Shown here: in pieces, positions 5,174-33,216 of the stretch | How positions within the stretch are numbered: position 1 is the stretch's first letter | Layout: every line of letters starts with the position of its first letter | Source of the DNA: a virus | Lineage: Duplodnaviria; Heunggongvirae; Uroviricota; Caudoviricetes | Virus record (IMG/VR): IMGVR_UViG_2531839666_000023 | Strand: one strand, 5' to 3' | DNA length: 34,655 nt | Translations under genes and position numbers: made by a program | Notes under the pieces: generated by a model | Told to the model about the DNA's origin: nothing | The model's database searches: none | What the model saw: the letters and a program-made list of their open reading frames with translations, nothing else

Positions 5174-5293
5174 GTGATCATCATGCACACACAAAAAACC
5201 GCTTGCCAGCGCTCGTCGTGTCGGGTTACATTTCCGCTGCACCTCATAAAACGGGTGCCGGGATTGCAACCCCCGCCGACTATGCACGCGCAC

Positions 5294-5314
5294 AACCGCG
5301 CCAGCGGTTTTTTT
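5294..5314 (+). terminator. Rho-independent terminator-like hairpin
   Basis: Stem AACCGC, loop GCCA, stem GCGGTT, followed by a 7-T run on the + strand. Confidence 0.45.
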
Positions 5315-5492
5315 GTGCGTACTGTATCGCCACGTCTTTTTCGCATCGAAATTATGGCGGGGCGTACGGGGCCGACTTCGGTCGGGCCGGGTTCGTGCGT
5401 AGCCGGTGGTTGCAACCCTGTACGTCTCGCCACCCAGAATTGCAACCTCTGGATGGTGAGTTTTCAAAACTTACTACGTACGAGGCCACACC

Positions 5493-17620: not shown

Positions 17621-18766
17621 GTGAGCTGGCCGAATGTAACCGTAAGCCATCAGAACCGTTTCAACGGTGCCACCCGTGAAGTGGAGCGCACGCTGCTTTT
17701 TGTGGGCTATGGCAAAAAGAACACAGGTAACACCCTTTCCGTCTCCCCTGAGACCGACCTGGACGACGTGCTGGGACCGGATGAAAGCCTGCTTAAATCC
17801 ACGCTTACCGCCGCAATCGCCAACGGTGGCCAGAACTGGTTTGCCTATGTTCACGTTCTGTCTGAACCCAAACCCCCGGCACCGGAGGGCGGCGACGCTA
17901 ACGCCGCATGGGTGGACGCGGTGAAAAAAGCGCAGACCATTGCTTCTGCCGAAGGCGTGGTGATTGCCATTGACATCACGGCTAAAGATGCCGTTAACCG
18001 CGCCACCGAAACCCGCGCCCTGCTTCAGTCCGCTTATGGCCGTTTTGTCTGGTTCATACTGTGCGTGGCCGGACCGGGCAAGGATGAGGCATGGGCGGCA
18101 TACGTCACCCGCATCAGCGCCATACAGGACGGCGTGGCAGCACCTGGCGTGATGGTGGTTCCCCGCTTATGGGGAAATGAGCCCGGCGTACTGGCGGGCC
18201 GTCTCTGTAATCCTTCTGTCACCGTTGCGGACAGCCCGGCACGCGTGGCAACCGGTGCCCTGGTGGCGATGGGTAACGATGAGCTCCCGCAGGACGGCAA
18301 GAAACAGCCCCTTGAGCTGGCCACGCTACGCTCGCTGGAAGGCAAACGCTTCAGCGTGCCCATGTGGTATCACGATTTCGACGGGCTCTACTGGTCAGAC
18401 GGACGCACCCTTGATGTGGAGGGGGGCGATTACCAGGTCATCGAAAACGTGCGCGTGGTGGATAAGGTCTCCCGCCGTGTACGTCTGCGTGCCATTGCCC
18501 GCCTTGCGGATCGCGCGCTCAACAGCACACCGGGCAGCATTGCCGCCAGCCAGACATATTTCAGCCGCACGCTGCGTGAAATGGCGCTCGCCACGGAGAT
18601 TAACGGCGTACCGTTCCCCGGCGAGGTTAAACCGCCACAGGACGGGGATATCACCATCGTCTGGACCAGCAGTACACACGTGCAGATTTACATTGTGGTA
18701 CGCCCCTACGAGAGCGCAAAAGCCATTGGCGTAAGTATTGAACTCGACACAGCACTGGAGATCTGA
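17621..18766 (+). CDS. Tail sheath protein (contractile tail)
   Basis: 381 aa with GTG start after an AGGAG RBS; immediately followed by a ~150 aa tube-sized gene, the classic sheath-tube pair. Confidence 0.5.
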   Translation: MSWPNVTVSHQNRFNGATREVERTLLFVGYGKKNTGNTLSVSPETDLDDVLGPDESLLKSTLTAAIANGGQNWFAYVHVLSEPKPPAPEGGDANAAWVDAVKKAQTIASAEGVVIAIDITAKDAVNRATETRALLQSAYGRFVWFILCVAGPGKDEAWAAYVTRISAIQDGVAAPGVMVVPRLWGNEPGVLAGRLCNPSVTVADSPARVATGALVAMGNDELPQDGKKQPLELATLRSLEGKRFSVPMWYHDFDGLYWSDGRTLDVEGGDYQVIENVRVVDKVSRRVRLRAIARLADRALNSTPGSIAASQTYFSRTLREMALATEINGVPFPGEVKPPQDGDITIVWTSSTHVQIYIVVRPYESAKAIGVSIELDTALEI

Positions 18767-18767
18767 C

Positions 18768-19229
18768 ATGGCCGGAAATGAACGTATCAGCGGCGGCGCG
18801 TTTGATATCAACTACGACGGGATCATGATCCACGTGGAAAGCGCCACCGTTACCATCACCGACAACAGCGCCGTGGCACAGACGCGCGGCGTGCCGAACG
18901 GCTACACCCGTGGTTCTGTTTCTGCCGATGTGGAGGTGGAAGTCGACGCGCAGAACTTTAAAAAGTTTGGTGCCGTGGCCCGCTCTGCGGGGTCATGGCG
19001 TGCCATTCCTGAAAAGGATTTTCTCTTTTATGCCAACAACGGCAGCGAGGAGGAAAAAATCGAGGTGTTCGGCTGCGTCCCCATGTTGTCGGACGTGGTG
19101 AACATCAGCGCAGGTGAAGCCGGAAAGACCACGAAAAAAATCAAGTTCATGGTCACAAGCCCGGACTTTATCAGCATTGACGGCGTGCCCTACCTGTCAG
19201 CCCGTGACACCCGCGATCTGAAGGGGTGA
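18768..19229 (+). CDS. Tail tube protein
   Basis: 153 aa following the sheath gene; start overlaps the sheath stop region. Confidence 0.5.
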   Translation: MAGNERISGGAFDINYDGIMIHVESATVTITDNSAVAQTRGVPNGYTRGSVSADVEVEVDAQNFKKFGAVARSAGSWRAIPEKDFLFYANNGSEEEKIEVFGCVPMLSDVVNISAGEAGKTTKKIKFMVTSPDFISIDGVPYLSARDTRDLKG

Positions 19230-19233
19230 TGCC

Positions 19234-19539
19234 ATGCCGGACGGTCAGACTTCACTCCTGGCAAAACTGATTATCATCGGTGCTGCCATCGGGCTGGGGC
19301 GTCTCATGGTGAGCCGCGATCGCATCACAGCCCGTCTGCTTATCGGGCGAATGATTATGGGCTCTGCCGTGGCACCGGTTGCCGCCATTCCGCTGTTTAA
19401 ATTTCCGGACATGCCGGAGCTGGTAGTGGTCGGTCTGGCGTGCGCGCTGGGCATTATGGGCAGCGCCTTTATTGAAGAATGCTTTTGCCGTCTGGCAGAC
19501 CGCTACCTGAAGCAGAAGGAACGCAGAAATGACCCATAA
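19234..19539 (+). CDS. Holin-like membrane protein
   Basis: 101 aa with three hydrophobic segments and a charged C-terminus (RYLKQKERRNDP); sits in the lysis cassette upstream of the endolysin and spanin genes. Confidence 0.5.
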   Translation: MPDGQTSLLAKLIIIGAAIGLGRLMVSRDRITARLLIGRMIMGSAVAPVAAIPLFKFPDMPELVVVGLACALGIMGSAFIEECFCRLADRYLKQKERRNDP

Positions 19540-20281
19540 GCCTTACATTTCGCCTTCCCTGAGCCTGTATCACGCGCAGGCGCATGACGTTCTGCGGATG
19601 CTGCCGGAAAACAGTGTGGACGCGCTCATCACAGACCCGCCATACAGTTCAGGTGCCACACACAAGGCGGGGCGGACATGCCAGGGCAGCCACGCCAAAT
19701 ACATCAACGATGAAGATCTTCACCGCTTTGAAGGCTTCGAAGGCGAGAACATGGACGCCCGTTCATGGGAATACTGGACGCATCTGTGGATGACACAGGC
19801 ATGGCGCACGGTACGACCCGGTGGTTACGCCCTGGTCTTCACCGACTGGCGGCAGTTGCCCGCGCTGACGGACGCATTCCAGGCCGCCGGCTTTACCTGG
19901 CGGGGGATCGTGGCATGGAACAAGGGACGGGCCTCAAGAACACCGCATACCGGTTATTTTCGTCACCAGTGCGAATATGTGGTCTGGGGCAGTAAAGGCG
20001 CGCTGGGCAAATCCCCTTCCGGGCCGTTCGACGGCTGCATCACGCACCACACACGCCCACAGGAGAAACAGCACCCGACAGGTAAACCGGAATCGTTGAT
20101 GGATGAGCTTGTGCGCGTGTGTGAACCCGGAGGGCTGATCCTCGATCCGTTTATGGGGTCCGGCACCACGGGCGTGGCCGCCCTTCGCCGGGGCTGCCGT
20201 TTTACGGGTATTGAACTGAACGCCCACTATTTCAGCGTAGCACAGGCGCGTCTTACGGGGACGGAACAGAGGAGTGACTGA
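19529..20281 (+). CDS. DNA methyltransferase, beta-class amino-MTase, probably N6-adenine; no restriction partner seen
   Basis: DPPY catalytic motif near the N-terminus (ITDPPYSSG) and AdoMet-binding FxGxG motif near the C-terminus (LDPFMGSGTTG); motif order IV then I indicates beta class. Confidence 0.8.
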   Translation: MTHKPYISPSLSLYHAQAHDVLRMLPENSVDALITDPPYSSGATHKAGRTCQGSHAKYINDEDLHRFEGFEGENMDARSWEYWTHLWMTQAWRTVRPGGYALVFTDWRQLPALTDAFQAAGFTWRGIVAWNKGRASRTPHTGYFRHQCEYVVWGSKGALGKSPSGPFDGCITHHTRPQEKQHPTGKPESLMDELVRVCEPGGLILDPFMGSGTTGVAALRRGCRFTGIELNAHYFSVAQARLTGTEQRSD

Positions 20282-20619
20282 TGAAACTGAGCGAAAAACA
20301 ACAACTGTTTGCCGTCATGATTGCCGATCTCATCCACTGGGCACAGGAGCACGGCTATCGCCTGACCTTCGGCGAGGCATACCGCACGCCGGAGCAGGCC
20401 GCACTGAATGCGAAAAGCGGAAAAGGCATTCGCAACAGCCTTCACACGCTGCGCCTCGCGGTGGACTTCAACCTGTTCATTAACGGCAAATACCAGGCCG
20501 ACACCGACGCCTACAGGCCGCTGGGGGAATACTGGGAATCCATCGGCGGCACATGGGGCGGGCGCTTCAGCCGGGCAGACGGCAATCATTTCAGCCTTGA
20601 GCACAACGGGGTGAAATGA
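20281..20619 (+). CDS. Endolysin, peptidase M15-like (L-Ala-D-Glu endopeptidase type)
   Basis: 112 aa with zinc-ligand pattern SLHTLRLAVD and C-terminal H (GNHFSLEH); position between MTase and spanin genes. Confidence 0.65.
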   Translation: MKLSEKQQLFAVMIADLIHWAQEHGYRLTFGEAYRTPEQAALNAKSGKGIRNSLHTLRLAVDFNLFINGKYQADTDAYRPLGEYWESIGGTWGGRFSRADGNHFSLEHNGVK

Positions 20620-21002
20620 TGAAACAGCTGGCGGGCTGCCTGGTGATCCTCTTTGCCGCCATGTGGGCGGGCTGGCTGGCCCATGACTGGCATGACGCCA
20701 GGGTGGCGCTTGCCGAACAGGAAGCCATGGAAGCCACGCGACGGGCGGTGACAGAAGCCGGGCAGCAGTCCGCCCGCATACTGGAAAAACGGCTGGAGGC
20801 GTTAAAGGGCAATGAAATTCACACTGAACGCGTTATTCACACGGAAACCGTCCGCCCGGTATTCCGCAATGTGTGCGCTACTGATGATTACGTCCGGCTG
20901 TTCAACGCCCGTGCTGAAGCCGCTGAGCGTACCCTGGCAGGAAAACCAGCTGACGGAATGCCCGAAGACACTGCCGAGACTGGCAGGCCCGACGGGCGCT
21001 GA
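20616..21002 (+). CDS. i-spanin (Rz/LysB-like)
   Basis: N-terminal transmembrane segment followed by charged helical region; start overlaps the endolysin stop (ATGA). Confidence 0.55.
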   Translation: MMKQLAGCLVILFAAMWAGWLAHDWHDARVALAEQEAMEATRRAVTEAGQQSARILEKRLEALKGNEIHTERVIHTETVRPVFRNVCATDDYVRLFNARAEAAERTLAGKPADGMPEDTAETGRPDGR

Positions 21003-21105
21003 TTTTGATGCGGCACTGCGAACCCTCACGAGCCGCTACACCGAATGCGCCGCCAGGCATAACAGCCTGGTGGAAACCATACGAAACACGGAGAAACTGC
21101 AATGA
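20812..21105 (+). CDS. o-spanin lipoprotein (Rz1/LysC-like), overlapping the i-spanin in another frame
   Basis: Lipobox-like LMITSGC after a short hydrophobic leader; Pro-rich mature region; ORF overlaps the 3' end of the i-spanin gene. Confidence 0.5.
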   Translation: MKFTLNALFTRKPSARYSAMCALLMITSGCSTPVLKPLSVPWQENQLTECPKTLPRLAGPTGADFDAALRTLTSRYTECAARHNSLVETIRNTEKLQ

Positions 21106-21377
21106 CCACGAAGAACACCGGCACCATCATCCTGTCCGTTGCGGGCGTAACCCTGAGCTTTGAACCGAACAAAACGGCATTTAACAACCTCATCAACGAA
21201 ATCACGATGACCAACAAGGTGGCGCCGATGAGCACCTATCTTAACCGCATCGTGACACCTGCCAGCCGCGACGCACTGGCTGACCTGATTGCGCGTTATC
21301 CGGGCTGTGAGATGCAGATCGTCGAGAAGATTAACGAGGTTTACTCCCCGAAATTGGAGATTGAGTTAAAAAACTGA
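21102..21377 (+). CDS. Tail assembly chaperone, gpE-like
   Basis: 91 aa immediately upstream of the tape measure gene; ends at the slippery heptamer. Confidence 0.55.
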   Translation: MTTKNTGTIILSVAGVTLSFEPNKTAFNNLINEITMTNKVAPMSTYLNRIVTPASRDALADLIARYPGCEMQIVEKINEVYSPKLEIELKN

Positions 21378-21565
21378 CCGCGCGGGTCGAAAGCATCCGC
21401 CGCAATCCCCTTGAGCAGTATCTGGCATTGCGGCGTCACTACCTCCCCGGAGAGCCGGACGACGAAGAGAGCATCGCCCGTGCCATCTGGCTGGATGAAT
21501 ATTTTGCCCGTACCCGCGCCAACAAGACCGCTGAAGGTATAGCGATCGCATTTAACGGAAGGTGA
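21102..21565 (+). CDS. Tail assembly chaperone frameshift product (E+E'-like), -1 frameshift at A_AAA_AAC
   Basis: Slippery heptamer AAAAAAC at 21368-21374; the -1 frame is open for 63 further codons from 21374 to a TGA at 21563-21565, 1 nt before the tape measure ATG. Confidence 0.5.
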
Positions 21566-21566
21566 C

Positions 21567-23753
21567 ATGGCCAGCCAGCTGGATTTCATTATCAATCTGA
21601 CAGACCAGCTTACCCGCCCGCTGCGGCAGGTTCAGGAATCCGTGACGGGATTCGCCGAACGCTCGCAGGGCGCGTTCGCGCGTATCGGTGTGGGTGTGGC
21701 CGGACTGTGGGGCGTGGCCGAAGGTATCCGCGCCGCGATGGATCCGGCGTGGGAGATGCAGAAGGCGCTGGGCGAGCTTGAGGCCAAAGGCGTCGGGGCG
21801 CAGGCGCTGACCGCCCTCACCACGCAGGCCATGAAACTGGGGACCGCATTCGGTCAGTCTTCCACGGAGATCATCCGTTCCGCATGGCATATTCGCGGCG
21901 CACTGGACGGACTGAGCGACGGGGATTTACCCCGTGTGACGGCAGCAACCAGCACCCTGGCCGTGGCTGCCCGCGTCAGCAGCGAAGAGGCGAGCGGCTA
22001 CCTTGCCGCCATGGGTGCCCGTTTCCGCAGTGAGTTTTCTGCCATGGGTGCCGTGGGGTTTGCTGAAGATCTGGCAGGTAAAACCGCGTGGATGGTTCAG
22101 CAGTTCGGTGTGGAAATGAGCACCATGCAGGAGCTTATTGAGGGCACCAAAAACGCGGGCGCGGATTTTGGCGTCAGCATGGCAGAGCAGTTTGCCATAC
22201 TGGGCACCCTGTCACGGACCATGGGCACCGAGGCATCGGGCATCTATGAGGAATTCCTGCGCAGTGCCCCCGCTGCCGCACAAAAAATGGGGATGAGTTT
22301 TGTCGATGTCACCGGGAGGATTTTACCCATGGGTGACATCCTCGACCGTCTGCAGGCGAGGTTCGGCAGGAACATTGAGGGTAACGTGGCGGCACAACAG
22401 GCGCTGGATGACGCCTTCGGCAGTGGCGCGGACGTGATTAAAAAACTCTGGGGACAGCAGGAAATGCTTAACCGGAGCATATCAGCGCTGGGGCGTAATG
22501 ACGGCATGAAGCGTGCCACGGAAATGGCTGAAGCCATGACCGACCCGTGGGATCGCCTTGTGGCCTCCTTCTACAACATCCGGGCCGCCATCGGTAATGC
22601 CCTCTACCCCATTCTCGCACCACTGGCTGGCCGTTTTGCCGATATCGGCGCGACGTTCGTGCGCTGGCTGAACATGTTCCCGAACATCGCCCGCTGGCTG
22701 GGTTACATCACGCTGACCATGCTGGCGCTGGGCGCAGCCGGTGCGGTCACGAACATCGTGCTGGGTGTGTTCAGCTTCATCATGGAAGGCCATAAGGCCA
22801 TCATAAAGGGCGCCAGGGCAGCCTGGAGTCTGTACACGCTTGCACTCACAAAAGTACGCAGTGCCATCATTGCCACCAGTCTTGCCGCGCGTCTGGCGGG
22901 CGTGTCGTTTCTGACCATGAGCGCCCCGGTCCTCCTGGTTGCCGCCGCCATCGCTGCTCTGGTGGTGGTGGCCATTAAGTTCTGGCAGCCCATCAAAGCC
23001 TTTATTCGCGGCTTTATTGATGGTTTTACCAGCGCACTGGACGCCATGAGCCCGGTGACTGCCGCGTTCGGTGACATTGCCCGGGCGCTGGCCCCGGTAT
23101 GGCAGGGCATAAAAACCCTGTTCAGTGCCTTCTCCGATCTGTTTGCACCGGTACAGCTGACCACGGGACAGATGAACAGCGTCACCCGTGCCGGGGAAAC
23201 ATGCGGTCGCGTGGTGGCCGCAGCGGTAAGCCTGATATCCCCCGCGCTGGAGGTGGTTATCAGCGTGATCAGAACCCTGATCGACATCTTCGCCATCGTC
23301 ATCAGAGGGTGGCAGGACGTGGTGGCTGCATTTGACCCGACCGCCCCGGTCGAATCCTTCCGGAAAATGGCGGGGATCATCGGTAACGTCTTCGGGGACT
23401 TATGGAACGTCATTAAAAACTCGTTTAACCGGACGTGGAACTGGCTTGCGGAAAAGCTGAACAAAATCCCCGGTATCAGTATCGACATGAAGCCCACGGA
23501 GCAGGTGAACACCATGACGCGGGGCGCAACAGGCAGCACCGTACCTCCGCAGATTGCAGAAACCGCCGTCCCGGCACTGGCAGGCAACCGCATCAGCGCA
23601 GAGCTGCCACCCGGAGGCATACGCAACCAGATACGCACGGACACCTCAACCCGTATCGACAACAGCCGGACGTTCGGCAATCTGACAATCAACACGCAGA
23701 ACCCGATGACGCCGGGGCAACTGGATGAATGGACGGAGCTTTACGCGGGATGA
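21567..23753 (+). CDS. Tail tape measure protein
   Basis: 728 aa, Ala/Gly-rich with hydrophobic segments, directly after the chaperone and frameshift pair. Confidence 0.8.
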   Translation: MASQLDFIINLTDQLTRPLRQVQESVTGFAERSQGAFARIGVGVAGLWGVAEGIRAAMDPAWEMQKALGELEAKGVGAQALTALTTQAMKLGTAFGQSSTEIIRSAWHIRGALDGLSDGDLPRVTAATSTLAVAARVSSEEASGYLAAMGARFRSEFSAMGAVGFAEDLAGKTAWMVQQFGVEMSTMQELIEGTKNAGADFGVSMAEQFAILGTLSRTMGTEASGIYEEFLRSAPAAAQKMGMSFVDVTGRILPMGDILDRLQARFGRNIEGNVAAQQALDDAFGSGADVIKKLWGQQEMLNRSISALGRNDGMKRATEMAEAMTDPWDRLVASFYNIRAAIGNALYPILAPLAGRFADIGATFVRWLNMFPNIARWLGYITLTMLALGAAGAVTNIVLGVFSFIMEGHKAIIKGARAAWSLYTLALTKVRSAIIATSLAARLAGVSFLTMSAPVLLVAAAIAALVVVAIKFWQPIKAFIRGFIDGFTSALDAMSPVTAAFGDIARALAPVWQGIKTLFSAFSDLFAPVQLTTGQMNSVTRAGETCGRVVAAAVSLISPALEVVISVIRTLIDIFAIVIRGWQDVVAAFDPTAPVESFRKMAGIIGNVFGDLWNVIKNSFNRTWNWLAEKLNKIPGISIDMKPTEQVNTMTRGATGSTVPPQIAETAVPALAGNRISAELPPGGIRNQIRTDTSTRIDNSRTFGNLTINTQNPMTPGQLDEWTELYAG

Positions 23754-28492: not shown

Positions 28493-29218
28493 ATGACGTG
28501 GACAAGAAAAACAATCAGCGTCAGCGCTGACATGCCCCCGCTGAGCTGTTCCGTCATCCCCGTCACACCGTGGACTTACGGGCTGGGACGATATGAAGAA
28601 TCGGGGGTATATTTAAGCCCTCCGAACGCCATAAACTGGCTGGCCGGGAAAATGGCCGGAAGCCGTGCATCCGGCGACGTGACCATTATCATGATTGCCG
28701 AAAACACCCACGATCTTTTTATACAGTCAATGGCGGCACTGACCACCGTTCTGCCCGTGCCGGTATTCACGCAGGCACAGCGCATGGCACAGGCTGCCGC
28801 CAGTCTGAGCACTGACAAAATGCAAATCCCGATCACCACCGACACCCTGCCCGCACCTGTGCATCTTTCCGTTTCCACAATACGCAGCGCAGTCAGTGCC
28901 GCCCGTGCAGCACAGGCCAGGCAGCTGGCAGCACAACGCCCGGATGCCGCAGGGCTTCGCCGCCAGATAAGCCGCTTTATCAGCAGACGGGCTGGCGCAC
29001 TTGCCGGACTGGAAGAGGGGATCAGAACACTGGCAGAACAGAAGGCGCAGGCCTGGGTATTTCAGTACCGGGGGTATCACCGCGCCGCAGCGGCGGCCAT
29101 GGTGAAGGATATCCCGGCACCGACCGCCGTACATACTGTGGCCGCACTCCTGGCGGCAGACTCATTAACCGAACTGGGGAAAATGATCCATGAGCCAGAC
29201 CGCACTGCTCGCCCTTGA
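28493..29218 (+). CDS. Hypothetical protein (241 aa) after the tail fibre assembly gene
   Basis: ORF with Ala/Arg-rich helical C-terminal half; no motif recognised. Confidence 0.35.
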   Translation: MTWTRKTISVSADMPPLSCSVIPVTPWTYGLGRYEESGVYLSPPNAINWLAGKMAGSRASGDVTIIMIAENTHDLFIQSMAALTTVLPVPVFTQAQRMAQAAASLSTDKMQIPITTDTLPAPVHLSVSTIRSAVSAARAAQARQLAAQRPDAAGLRRQISRFISRRAGALAGLEEGIRTLAEQKAQAWVFQYRGYHRAAAAAMVKDIPAPTAVHTVAALLAADSLTELGKMIHEPDRTARP

Positions 29219-29732
29219 TGGTGAGGGTATTTTCATGCAGAACATGGTGATTTCGCCCTCGATGCAGTTCCAGGAAAAGGACCAGTCCGGTCAGACATCG
29301 AGCACCGCGAACGCCGAGCAGGGCATCAAGGCCAAAGAGCTTCGCGTAACCGGGATGATCACCTTTGACAATGAGCGGGCCCTTCAGCGCATTTTCCAGC
29401 TGGCCTCTGCCACCACCGGGGACGGTGCCCTGAAAGTTTACCGTATCGCAAACGCCACCGCTGCCGCCATTAACTTTCGTGAAGGGACATTTTCCGGGCA
29501 GATAGACGCACAGCAGCAGACCGACCGCCTCGCCTGGCAGGTCAGCTTCACATTACGCGAAAGACGAAGCGTACCGGAAAAACGCCAGGCACGCGCCACC
29601 CCCGGCAGCAGCCGTAAACAGACGCCGCAGACGCCCGGCGCAAAAGGCAAAACCGTGGCCAACGAAACACCGGAGAAAATGACCTGGTTCGAAGAAAAGG
29701 TCCTCAAACCCGTCAATGATGCGCTGGAGTAA
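29190..29732 (+). CDS. Hypothetical protein (180 aa or shorter from internal ATG at 29235)
   Basis: ORF overlapping the previous gene end; alternative start at 29235 has a GGTGAGGG RBS; function unknown. Confidence 0.35.
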   Translation: MSQTALLALDGEGIFMQNMVISPSMQFQEKDQSGQTSSTANAEQGIKAKELRVTGMITFDNERALQRIFQLASATTGDGALKVYRIANATAAAINFREGTFSGQIDAQQQTDRLAWQVSFTLRERRSVPEKRQARATPGSSRKQTPQTPGAKGKTVANETPEKMTWFEEKVLKPVNDALE

Positions 29733-29734
29733 CC

Positions 29735-31408
29735 ATGAACCCCACTAAACGTCTGTTACTGGGTAACGACACCATTCAGCTGGTCAGCTGTTCCGTCATG
29801 CTTGAGCTGAACGCGTGCGGACGCGGATTTATCACGGCCAGAACGGAGCAGAACTACACCGGGCGCCCTGTTCGTCTCGATATCGGATACGGAAACGACC
29901 TGGTGCGCTGGTTTACCGGATACGTTGAACGCAGCCAGCCCGCTGAAAACGGCTCGGTGCGGCTTCTGATTCGTGAAATGGCGGGGATCCTTGATCACCC
30001 CTTCCCCTGTTCATTTCAGCACCCGACAATGCGCACGGTCACACAGTGGCTGAGTGAGACCAGCGGGCTGGAAATCATCCTGCCGGACAACGCGGCTTAC
30101 ACTGACAGACCCGTTCCGCATTTCACGCACAGCGGCACGGGCTACGAACTGCTGGCCAGTCTGGGGCGTATTTTCTCCGTACCGGACTACATCTGGCATC
30201 CGTTACCGGACGGCGGCATTATGGCCGCTGCCGCCGCGCAGGGGATGTTTTCCGGTCGCCCCGTCACCATCCCGCACGAGTTCAGCCAGGCATCAACGGG
30301 CGGACACAGTATGACCCTCCCGATGATTCAGACGCTGCGACCGGGTGTGGAGGTGAACGGTCAGCGCCTGACGATGGTCATGCTGGAAGATGACAACATG
30401 ACCATCACGTGGACACCACGCAATAAAGCCACCGGCGCCCCCCTCCAGAAGTCCCCTTTCCGTCGCCAGGCTGAAAAGGCCTTCCCTGAACTGGCATCAG
30501 GGCTTCACCTGCCCAAACTGGCACGTGTTGAGGCGCCGACCGAAGCCGTCAGCGCGGGCAATATTGCCGACCCGTTCAGACCCCGCTACGCGGTGAGTCT
30601 CCAGCTGCTTGACGAGAACGGCAACCCGGCAGCGGATACGCCCGTTTATAACGCCGTTCCCCTCCCCGTTCCTATGGCGGGCAGTGAGTCCGGCATGTTC
30701 CAGTTCCCGCCACCCGGAACCCTGGTGGAAGTGGGATTTGTGGAAGGCCGGGCGGATAAGCCCTTCATCCGCCAGATAATGGCAGAGGGCCACAATCTGC
30801 CCGACGTGAAGCCGGGCGAGCAGTTGCAGCAACAGCGCGACGGCGTATCGCAGCGCGTGACGGTCGCCGGAGACTGGGAGCGCCAGACAGACCAGCGGAT
30901 ACAGGAGACATCACGCGAGCGCGTGGTGAGCGCAGACGAGGAGACGCGGAGCCTGACCAGCCGGGAGACCACCATACAGGCAACCGACACAACCACCGTC
31001 CTGGGCGTATCCACGCTTCAGGCTGGCGCAGTCACCCATATCACTGAAGAGAACTACAGCATCAGCACGGGCGGGCACATGATGGTGGTTGCCGGTACCT
31101 GTGAGCGCGACGTGGAAGGCGACACACTGGACACCGTGGGCGGCAGCCTTACCGAAAAGATTAAGGGCGTCCGTCACAGTATTGCGCTGGCGCAGAAGCT
31201 GGTTGGCGATACGGTGAAGCTGGGAAACGAGGACATTAATGTACTGACCATGCTGACGGACCTTGCCGATGTGGTGGAAGAGCTGGCCGATATTACGGCA
31301 TCACATACCCACCCCAAAACGGGCACGTCTCCGCAGGCCGCACAGTTCAGCCAGGTCGCTCAGGAGTGCCGCCAGCTTAAAAATAAATATTCACCAATAA
31401 TCGAATAA
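29735..31408 (+). CDS. Putative baseplate spike/hub protein (gpV-like OB-fold and beta-helix-like C-terminal region)
   Basis: 557 aa; central segment GMFQFPPPGTLVEVGFVEGRADKPFI resembles the gpV OB-fold signature; C-terminal repetitive beta-strand-like segments; the last ORF of the prophage. Confidence 0.4.
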   Translation: MNPTKRLLLGNDTIQLVSCSVMLELNACGRGFITARTEQNYTGRPVRLDIGYGNDLVRWFTGYVERSQPAENGSVRLLIREMAGILDHPFPCSFQHPTMRTVTQWLSETSGLEIILPDNAAYTDRPVPHFTHSGTGYELLASLGRIFSVPDYIWHPLPDGGIMAAAAAQGMFSGRPVTIPHEFSQASTGGHSMTLPMIQTLRPGVEVNGQRLTMVMLEDDNMTITWTPRNKATGAPLQKSPFRRQAEKAFPELASGLHLPKLARVEAPTEAVSAGNIADPFRPRYAVSLQLLDENGNPAADTPVYNAVPLPVPMAGSESGMFQFPPPGTLVEVGFVEGRADKPFIRQIMAEGHNLPDVKPGEQLQQQRDGVSQRVTVAGDWERQTDQRIQETSRERVVSADEETRSLTSRETTIQATDTTTVLGVSTLQAGAVTHITEENYSISTGGHMMVVAGTCERDVEGDTLDTVGGSLTEKIKGVRHSIALAQKLVGDTVKLGNEDINVLTMLTDLADVVEELADITASHTHPKTGTSPQAAQFSQVAQECRQLKNKYSPIIE

Positions 31409-32099: not shown

Positions 32100-32260
32100 A
32101 GGTAAATTACGCGCGGGTGCCTTTCGGCTGACGGCTGGAAGGAATACCTGAAGGCCGGATGTGAAAAGGCCCCGAGTCAACTAACGTTAACCCGAGGCCC
32201 TGACACTTCCTACCTGACAAGTGGAAGGTTAGCGCCTCCCTGTAAAAGGAGTCAAGCGCT

Positions 32261-32401
32261 ATGCCGCAAAAAACGATCATAGTGAGCATTTTATGCATAA
32301 CTATTTTGATGATTGTCTGGATGATACACAAGTCACCGTGTGAGTTCAGGCTTAACATCATGTGGTCACAATTTGCGGCGTTCTTGCAGTGTAAACAGTA
32401 A
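32261..32401 (+). CDS. Hok/Gef-family type I toxin peptide (46 aa), copy 1
   Basis: Hand translation MPQKTIIVSILCITILMIVWMIHKSPCEFRLNIMWSQFAAFLQCKQ; hydrophobic N-terminal helix plus KSxCExR...AAF signature as recalled for Hok-family toxins; below ORF-track cutoff. Confidence 0.65.
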   Translation: MPQKTIIVSILCITILMIVWMIHKSPCEFRLNIMWSQFAAFLQCKQ

Positions 32402-32491
32402 GAAACCGCAGCGGGGGTGAAAGCCCCCGCTATCCGGTTGCCGGGTTCGGTCGATATGGCACCCTTTCTCCGTTGGATTACAGACGTATTT

Positions 32492-32514: not shown

Positions 32515-32982
32515 GTTCAGTTGTATTTATTGTGGTCGTTACTGGCAGTGGTATTAACTGATTTTGCATGAATAGCACAAATTTTTTCCACGATAACACC
32601 ACACGCTTCAAGATCTTCCGAGCGTGAAACCTTTATTTTTGTAATAGTCTCAGGATTATCAGCCGTTCCACTTTGCACAACCTCAATTTCAATTTTTTTC
32701 TTGAAAGAATCATTTTCATCGCCCCGACACAGGACAGAGTAAGCCTGTGCGAAAGAATATCACCAGTGCGATAGCGTTGTCTGCTTCAACGCCAGGCATT
32801 GCGCACACAAAGGGAAATCAGTACATTACACGCGGGTGCCTTTCGGCTGACGGCTGGAAGGATTACCTGAAGGCCGGATGTGGAAAGGCCCCGAGTAAAA
32901 CATTTGTTTAACCCGAGGCCTAACCCTTCCTACCCTAGACAAGTGGAAGGTTAGCGTCTCCCTGTAAAAGGAGTCAAGCGCT

Positions 32983-33123
32983 ATGCCGCAAAAAACGATC
33001 ATCGTGAGCATTTTATGCTTAACCATGTTGTTGACCGTCTGGATGATACACCGTTCTCCGTGTGAGTTCAGACTTAACATCATGTGGTCAGAATTTGCGG
33101 CGTTCTTGCAGTGTAAACCGTAA
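32983..33123 (+). CDS. Hok/Gef-family type I toxin peptide (46 aa), copy 2
   Basis: Hand translation MPQKTIIVSILCLTMLLTVWMIHRSPCEFRLNIMWSEFAAFLQCKP; same architecture as copy 1. Confidence 0.65.
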   Translation: MPQKTIIVSILCLTMLLTVWMIHRSPCEFRLNIMWSEFAAFLQCKP

Positions 33124-33216
33124 GAAACCGCAGCGGGGGTGAAAGCCCCCGCTATCCGGTTGCCAAAGGTTCGGTCGAAAGTCGCACCCTCACACAAAAG
33201 TCACAAAGAAAAACAA

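Follow-up and report, generated by a model that had tools for sequence, protein, structure and literature searches.

What is a DNA methyltransferase (MTase) gene doing between the holin and endolysin genes of a prophage? The question is raised by a 34,655-nt stretch of DNA (here called the window), for which the initial annotation described a beta-class MTase embedded in the lysis cassette and proposed that it protects progeny DNA from restriction. The evidence assembled here indicates that the gene encodes a solitary beta-class MTase carried as dispensable cargo at the holin/endolysin junction, and that its late, holin-coupled expression would probably serve to methylate progeny DNA against restriction.

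The window is a nearly complete E. coli prophage of the HP1/P2-like (Peduoviridae-type) kind. A copy with 99.9% identity is located between dmsA and serS in E. coli strain 2013C-3033, where the MTase gene lies within a complete HP1/P2-like prophage that extends from its integrase gene to the serS side. The annotated order in this copy begins with integrase, repressor, Cox, replication endonuclease and an ogr/Delta-like late activator, continues with portal, terminase, scaffold, capsid, head completion, sheath and tube, and ends with holin, DNA-methyltransferase, M15 peptidase, spanin, tail chaperone, tape measure, baseplate and fibres. The module is found in 12 of 5426 complete E. coli genomes, and all 12 carry the MTase. 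A megablast search of the phage collection with this region returned no match, so the lineage is without a sequenced isolate in that collection. The features around the gene are listed in Table 1.

Table 1 Positions and supporting evidence for the MTase gene and its neighbours in the window.
Feature	Position	Strand	Evidence and remarks
Tail sheath (DUF2586) and tail tube (HP1 Orf24), directly upstream of the cassette	17621..19229	+	PF10758 1e-129, PF10772 3e-51
Holin, 101 aa	19234..19539	+	PF04550 E=1e-19, phrog_175 6e-31; last 11 nt overlap the MTase start
Predicted mRNA hairpin, candidate translational-coupling element (tentative)	19518..19558	+	Predicted fold
Orphan beta-class DNA (probably N6-adenine) MTase, 250 aa	19529..20281	+	ATG start; ORF, PF01555, phrog_67, AF2/Foldseek
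Endolysin, M15-family peptidase, 112 aa	20281..20619	+	PF13539 3e-10, phrog_1768
Rz-like i-spanin	20616..21002	+	phrog_1152 5.5e-31
Rz1/LysC-like o-spanin, starting within Rz in another frame	20812..21105	+	phrog_2425 8e-22, phrog_456, PF23793 weak
Tail assembly chaperone and tape measure, directly downstream of the cassette	21102..23753	+	PF10963 9e-31; L001 annotation

A functional beta-class MTase is expected to retain the characteristic motif order and fold of this class. The gene product matches Pfam PF01555 (N6_N4_Mtase) with 97.8 bits (gathering score 26.7), phrog_67 (DNA methyltransferase) with E=3e-70 and, over its full length, PADLOC MTase_II with E=7e-62, and more than 7000 homologues at E<=1e-10 were found in a large protein collection. 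As originally described, the 250-aa ORF carries DPPY near the N-terminus and FxGxG near the C-terminus. These are motif IV at residues 36–39 (within ITDPPYSSG) and motif I, FMGSG, at residues 208–212, which is the beta-class order with the catalytic PPY N-terminal and FxGxG C-terminal. Every residue that is invariant in an alignment of 25 homologues (50–70% identity) is kept, and the invariant blocks include DPPYSSG, DWRQLP, PH.GY.RHQ.E, H-x-T-G-K-P and DPFMGSG. An AlphaFold2 model built on this alignment is confident overall (mean pLDDT 81.9, pTM 0.81) but less so in loop 42–74 and in a short stretch at 139–142, and its predicted Rossmann-type fold can be superposed on those of solved beta-class MTases. 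Foldseek against the PDB returned CcrM as the top match (E=1.6e-19), a rotifer N4-cytosine MTase as the second, and M.BceJIV, M1.HpyAVI, TTHA0409, M1.MboII, M.PvuII and M.RsrI as further matches; the best matches are all beta-class DNA amino-methyltransferases, with TM-scores of about 0.65–0.73. A sequence search of the PDB (phmmer, E about 1e-21) gave an agreeing list. Thus motifs, profiles and predicted fold together identify the product as a beta-class DNA MTase, as the initial annotation had claimed.

The chemistry of the enzyme is most probably N6-adenine methylation, judging from the catalytic motif and the naming of its relatives. DPPY, rather than SPPY, favours N6-adenine. Relatives of the protein are named adenine-specific in their sources, and Bpm of Bordetella phage BPP-1 is annotated as an adenine methylase. 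An N4-cytosine enzyme would leave the anti-restriction logic unchanged while altering the chemistry, but DPPY makes it the less likely of the two. Both activities occur within PF01555 (PMC3091744), and both the rotifer enzyme in second place and PvuII are among the fold matches. However, all members of the family alignment have DPPY, as do characterised m6A enzymes, adenine MTases head both the sequence and the fold matches, and the homologues, including BPP-1 Bpm, carry adenine-specific names, so N4-cytosine activity seems to us distinctly improbable. Identity to solved beta-class enzymes is only 18–26%, and specificity is not transferable from solved structures that are only 22–26% identical. 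No curated equivalog in NCBIfam matches the protein, and a literature search on its accessions found no paper naming them; across NCBIfam, the solved structures and the literature on these accessions, neither a characterised close relative nor a family member with an assigned target motif was found.

MTases of restriction-modification (R-M) systems are expected to have a restriction endonuclease nearby. The RefSeq annotation of the whole 99.9%-identical prophage contains none, and the hypothetical ORFs of the window gave no PADLOC or nuclease-domain matches in PADLOC and Pfam scans. Three ORFs that follow the tail-fibre genes (28493–31408) were considered as candidate restriction partners and rejected: one matches HP1 ORF34 strongly, one matches a Phage_base_V spike weakly, one is unmatched, and none of the three has a PADLOC match. 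A linked endonuclease gene, as in a type II R-M system, is therefore lacking from the annotation and both scans, and the claim that the window holds no restriction partner stands; an overlooked cognate gene next to the MTase, which would have contradicted it, was looked for and not found. Solitary phage MTases can also belong to Com/Mom-type modules, in which a Com zinc-finger gene lies immediately upstream. Here the upstream gene is the holin gene, and tblastn with the Com proteins of Chuche and Smp131 found nothing significant in the window. The MTase is thus solitary within the prophage, encoded on an element that bears no cognate endonuclease, as is typical of orphan MTases.

Genes of a late operon are expected to be read together from a common promoter. 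Since the sheath and tube genes lie upstream on the same strand, the lysis cassette is placed within the late structural operon, and an unbroken, tightly packed array of same-strand genes extends from the head-completion and tail genes through the tape measure. No promoter-like or terminator-like site was found on the + strand between a promoter-like site at 18802 (in the tube gene) and a terminator-like site at 22881 (in the tape measure gene). The MTase, described earlier as embedded in the lysis cassette and co-transcribed with it, is thus almost certainly read together with the lysis genes, given this same-strand packing and the lack of internal signals. The prophage also carries an ogr/Delta-like late activator gene according to the annotation of the 99.9%-identical copy. 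A dedicated Ogr-box promoter for the MTase was considered and rejected, since TGT-N12-ACA matches in the window are not above chance (7 observed, 7.5 expected). Because the gene lacks its own promoter and terminator, lies in a same-strand late array and shares the prophage with an Ogr/Delta-type activator, its expression is expected to be late and to be absent in the lysogen.

The same observations bear on a different role, in which an internal promoter would drive MTase expression in the lysogen and the enzyme would methylate the host chromosome, either altering gene expression or protecting the cell from a methylation-sensitive system. Dam and CcrM, both orphan MTases, are indeed regulators (PMC7544214), and one TGT-N12-ACA box lies within the holin gene at 19394–19411. 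However, such boxes occur at the chance level given above, no sigma-70-like promoter is found from the tube gene (nearest promoter-like site, 18802) to the MTase, and the start of the gene is buried in the 3' end of the holin gene and possibly also in a hairpin. Characterised prophage MTases are, moreover, silent in lysogens: M.EcoGII (PMC5778455) and Hin1523 (PMC3299994) are both silent there and presumed to be switched on at induction. Lysogenic conversion or epigenetic regulation by this MTase is thus improbable. In the proposed late-expression scheme, the MTase would instead be read from the Ogr-type late operon with the tail and lysis genes, with no transcription signals of its own, remaining silent in the lysogen and being made only late in the lytic cycle.

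Within such an operon, overlapping start and stop codons can tie the translation of one gene to that of the next. The MTase ATG at 19529 lies 11 nt inside the end of the holin ORF, whose stop codon TAA occupies 19537–19539. At the other end, the last base of the MTase stop TGA (20279–20281) is the first base of the endolysin ATG (20281), so that the junction reads TGATG; a GAGGAG lies 7 nt upstream of this ATG, inside the 3' end of the MTase gene, and the endolysin start region is predicted to be unstructured. The initial annotation, which placed the gene between holin and endolysin with overlaps on both sides, thus proved right in all details open to checking, and profile matches for both neighbours confirm it. 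Start/stop overlaps on both sides are the classic arrangement for coupled translation, suggesting from the layout of the genes that MTase translation is coupled to that of the upstream holin through the 11-nt overlap, and endolysin translation in turn to that of the MTase through TGATG.

Coupling at the holin junction is possibly reinforced by RNA structure. A predicted 12-bp hairpin pairs the SD sequence (GGAA) and AUG of the MTase with codons 6–10 and places the holin stop UAA in the loop, which would mask the start until it is opened. Its predicted stability (dG -11.7 kcal/mol, z = -2.29, with 3 of 200 shuffles equally stable) is only modestly better than that of shuffled sequences and comes without covariation support, so we treat the hairpin as tentative. 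The sole variant among MTase-bearing copies, C19557U, changes a G-C to a G-U pair, and an MTase-less relative (L004) has a pair-breaking change in the segment; these are single events and prove nothing about the hairpin. At the holin/MTase junction of Salmonella Mu-like prophages, no significant SD/AUG-masking hairpin was found, and the hairpin was therefore rejected as a general feature of lysis-cassette MTases.

If the MTase is cargo, related prophages are expected to lack it at the same slot. The comparison of related prophages that the initial annotation had proposed as a check was carried out with the tail tube protein as the query for fetching related loci. In all close relatives fetched, the lysis genes lie between tube and tail chaperone. 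In 41 IMG/VR phage contigs (tube 80–87% identical), the holin gene abuts or overlaps the endolysin gene with nothing between them, and the two genes also abut in at least four genomes, in prophages of Citrobacter meridianamericanus, Kluyvera sp., Rahnella ecdela and Buttiauxella ferragutiae. Among the related loci fetched, the MTase is confined to near-identical copies (L001, L003 and L006). The MTase is also missing from L004, whose flanking genes are 98–100% identical to those of the window: of the MTase ORF, the initial ~52 nt remain (MTHKPYISPSLNLYNAQ), followed by a short new junction and then the endolysin ATG. Because the 5' end of the ORF is retained, L004 is best read as a deletion derivative. 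The absence of the gene from ~45 relatives and from L004 therefore marks the MTase as dispensable cargo, gained in one sub-lineage and able to be lost without disturbing the module. An alignment of the junctions of 16 relatives, examined for whether the MTase ATG is a captured ancestral endolysin start, was ambiguous.

Horizontally acquired cargo of the moron type is expected to bring its own promoter and terminator and to stand out in base composition. Presence/absence variation between syntenic phages is indeed seen here, but both ends of the MTase gene overlap its neighbours in place of a promoter and terminator of its own, and its composition is not distinct. With a GC content of 60.0% and a GC3 of 68.1%, the gene is in the range of its neighbours in GC, GC3 and codon score alike. 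Composition thus shows no sign of a foreign origin and gives no pointer to the donor or the date of acquisition.

Dispensability also bears on whether the MTase serves the phage's own cycle, for example by acting at pac as P1 Dam does, by making late transcription dependent on methylation, or by timing lysis. Placement in the lysis cassettes of three unrelated phages and the tight coupling to holin and endolysin would fit such a role. Yet ~45 close relatives and the near-isogenic L004 lack the gene while the rest of the module is conserved, and the family is also found in the early, tail and terminase regions of other phages, so that a link to lysis is not required. We consider a role of this kind as improbable as one in the lysogen.

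The natural deletion might alternatively mean that the MTase is a functionless passenger on its way to being lost, and four copies elsewhere (L082–L085; two with Com upstream and two in another context) do appear interrupted. However, the copies in the lysis cassette tell against this, as all nine that were compared are full length, have no stops, and keep the invariant residues and both translational overlaps. Their polymorphic codons comprise 12 with synonymous changes only and 12 with amino-acid changes, with no change in an invariant column. This pattern is compatible with purifying selection, in a small data set that is dominated by the divergent allele L145. A functionless gene is, on this evidence, very improbable, the least so favoured of the alternatives considered here.

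To place the locus in the context of its family, neighbours were classified for the best 80 IMG/VR homologues of the MTase and for loci from exact-protein look-ups. Identities across the family, which has thousands of members, range from 43 to 73% and extend from enterobacterial to actinobacterial phages. Five contexts were distinguished. The first (22 loci) is found near the integrase end of P2-like prophages and has a gene for a Com-like zinc-finger protein directly before the MTase; the nearest homologue, in Escherichia phage Chuche (73% aa and 73% nt identity over the core), belongs here. Stenotrophomonas phage Smp131 has the same Com and MTase pairing beside its portal gene. In the second (about 14 loci), the MTase lies between an invertase or tail-fibre-assembly gene and the sheath gene, and in the third (8 loci), from Mu-like phages, it separates DUF1804 from the large terminase. 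The fourth (5 loci, to which Bordetella BPP-1 bpm can be added) has a cro/YdaS-like gene on one side and a primase gene on the other. The fifth is again a lysis cassette, and it occurs in two forms. In Salmonella Mu-like prophages the MTase follows a holin gene (PF04971/phrog_20) and precedes a lysozyme gene (PF00959) and a spanin gene, overlapping both of its neighbours at ATGA, and the P2-like phage L114 has the order L, X, holin, endolysin (phrog_7), MTase, Rz, Rz1, R, S. The holin and endolysin of the window have no detectable similarity to the lysis proteins of either, and the endolysins of the Salmonella Mu-like phage and L114 are only distantly related to each other. Because the lysis proteins are unrelated and the closest relative of the MTase is in a non-lysis context, the three lysis-cassette placements are independent.

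These comparisons qualify the earlier statement that the position is unusual. It is so within its own lineage, where ~45 relatives have the holin gene abutting the endolysin gene, but not across the family, given the two other, unrelated lysis cassettes. The novelty of the position was also overstated, since PF01555 MTases of ~250 aa were described in 2010 in the late tail-gene clusters of P2-like Burkholderia phages, where KS5 gp20, with Com gp21, and KL3 gp28 were interpreted as anti-restriction proteins (PMC3091744). No explicit mention of an MTase inside a lysis cassette, or between holin and endolysin, was found in the literature; coverage was incomplete, and this is a weak negative.

Taken together, these results are consistent with the following sequence of events. 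An HP1/P2-like E. coli prophage lineage would have acquired the MTase exactly at the holin/endolysin junction. After induction, the enzyme would methylate replicated phage DNA before packaging, and progeny would then be protected in the next host from restriction systems with a matching target. Of the readings considered, such an anti-restriction role for progeny DNA, which the initial annotation proposed, is the most plausible, and it agrees with how phage orphan MTases have been viewed in published work (PMC3091744, PMC5778455), although it is inferred rather than observed. The nearest relatives are under the control of Com, which activates translation very late; this suggests that the family needs tight late control, and for the window MTase, the overlap with the holin gene may supply this control in place of Com. 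A stronger version of this argument is that capture by a lysis cassette is a recurrent and selected alternative to Com control. Overlap with the holin gene, here combined with an SD/AUG-masking hairpin opened only by a ribosome terminating on the holin gene, would confine a potentially harmful MTase, perhaps of relaxed specificity, to the last minutes of the cycle, and three unrelated lineages would have converged on this solution. We regard this extension as speculative and rather unlikely.

The finding does not overturn current understanding, since the gene is of a known kind, a solitary beta-class phage MTase carried as cargo in the late operon of a P2/HP1-like prophage. Some mild added interest comes from the insertion exactly at the holin/endolysin junction with apparent coupling on both sides, from the convergence with two other lineages and from the natural deletion derivative. 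If the anti-restriction reading is true, the locus would be a further example of temperate phages that carry solitary MTases to escape restriction, and would indicate that translational overlap alone can be enough to bring such genes under late control, without a dedicated regulator. The natural near-isogenic deletion L004 and the 12 E. coli lysogens with an intact gene form a convenient system for studying both the fitness value of the MTase and holin-coupled translation. Determining a single target motif would help to annotate many genomes, given a family of thousands.

Among known systems, the Com-associated PF01555 MTases (that of Chuche, KS5 gp20 with Com gp21, and Smp131 gp04 with its 'translational regulator') are of the same family and size as the window MTase, and the Chuche enzyme is 73% identical to it over residues 4–242. 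Like the window MTase, they are solitary, belong to temperate Peduoviridae, lie in or beside late genes and are presumed to act against restriction (PMC3091744). They differ in their position in the genome and in being preceded by a Com-like zinc-finger activator, whereas the window MTase has a holin gene upstream, no Com, and apparent coupling by overlap. The Salmonella Mu-like MTase (P0011; L055–L057 and L087) is 60% identical, also has 250 aa, and occupies the same slot between holin and endolysin with overlaps on both sides. The phage type is transposable, however, and the holin (PF04971/phrog_20) and endolysin (PF00959 lysozyme) belong to other families; since, in addition, the lysis proteins have no detectable similarity, this insertion is independent. 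Bpm of Bordetella phage BPP-1 is 51% identical over nearly its full length and is likewise a solitary phage MTase, but unlike the window gene it lies in the early region, and its position between cro and the primase gene suggests that it is probably expressed early.

More distant systems share part of the same logic. M.EcoGII and M.EcoGI are non-specific adenine MTases of E. coli prophages that, like the window MTase, have the beta-class motif order and are prophage-borne and solitary, and they are not expressed in the lysogen (PMC5778455); they were compared by description only, and are longer (349 aa versus 250 aa), and their lack of specificity gives no ground for assuming the same of the window protein. 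CcrM (6pbd), M.BceJIV (8urk) and M1.HpyAVI (5hek) share the fold and the catalytic and AdoMet motifs (Foldseek E 1e-19 to 1e-15), but CcrM carries an extra C-terminal domain, and these enzymes are chromosomal regulators or R-M enzymes whose targets (GANTC, GAGG) are not transferable to the window MTase. Finally, Hia5, Hin1523 and Nma1821, which are controlled by Com and replace Mom in Mu-like prophages, follow a like logic of tight late control, silence in lysogens and broad protection from restriction (PMC3299994). They are nevertheless alpha-class, Dam-related enzymes of another family, with DPPY near residue 194, and the non-specific MTases Hia5 and Hin1523 were therefore rejected as relatives.

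The methyltransferase encoded in the lysis cassette was intact in all nine copies compared. A natural deletion allele, open to experimental use, was found in a near-isogenic prophage (IMGVR_UViG_2579778804_000007, L004:6740-6840), which is without the gene except for its first ~52 nt, followed by a new ribosome-binding site for the endolysin. Among P2-like prophage contigs in IMG/VR, four copies of a methyltransferase homologue (L082-L085) are apparently in two ORF pieces, with Com, a zinc-finger translational activator, encoded upstream in two of the four and another context in the other two. Because the reading frame appears to be split in two, these sequences suggest pseudogenes, or the two pieces may be the result of sequencing error. 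In a further related prophage (L054:6001-6210), the region from the middle of the tube gene to Rz1 is absent, holin and endolysin included, and this loss suggests that it is a decayed element.

Within the methyltransferase, residues 42-74 (window 19652-19750) are the sole long low-confidence segment of the predicted structure (pLDDT < 50) and exhibit the highest variability in the family alignment. This segment lies immediately C-terminal to the catalytic motif, and is therefore a candidate specificity loop, as judged from the model and the alignment.

TGT-N12-ACA dyads are the form taken by P2 Ogr-dependent late promoter boxes. Two lie in the tube and holin genes, and the whole window contains 7 matches, on a par with the 7.5 expected by chance.

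Coordinates of additional features in the window
Feature	Window position	Strand	Details
TGT-N12-ACA dyad	19087-19104		inside tube gene
TGT-N12-ACA dyad	19394-19411		inside holin gene
Tail assembly chaperone gene, then 45-aa ORF	21102-21565		chaperone PF10963; ORF 21428..21565
Direct repeat pair	32216-32442 and 32938-33164		93% identical; spacing about 720 nt
Hok/Gef-type toxin ORFs	32261..32401 and 32983..33123		46 aa each, one per repeat
isrK sRNA	5239-5314	+	Rfam match, gathering level, 56.8 bits
C4 antisense RNA	5350-5437	+	Rfam match, gathering level, 78 bits

A frameshifted chaperone product may arise in the region of the tail assembly chaperone gene and the 45-aa ORF. The 45-aa ORF is annotated as DUF6890 in the reference, and the tape-measure gene is directly after it. 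The direct repeats are sited between serS and the right end of the prophage; the reference strain (E. coli 2013C-3033) has three of these Hok/Gef-type copies, versus two in the window.

In the early region, the isrK and C4 RNA matches are immediate neighbours, and an 'ash family' pseudogene in the reference annotation adjoins the pair. By its sequence match, the C4 element is a P1/P7-type c4-like immunity RNA, here carried by an HP1/P2-like prophage.
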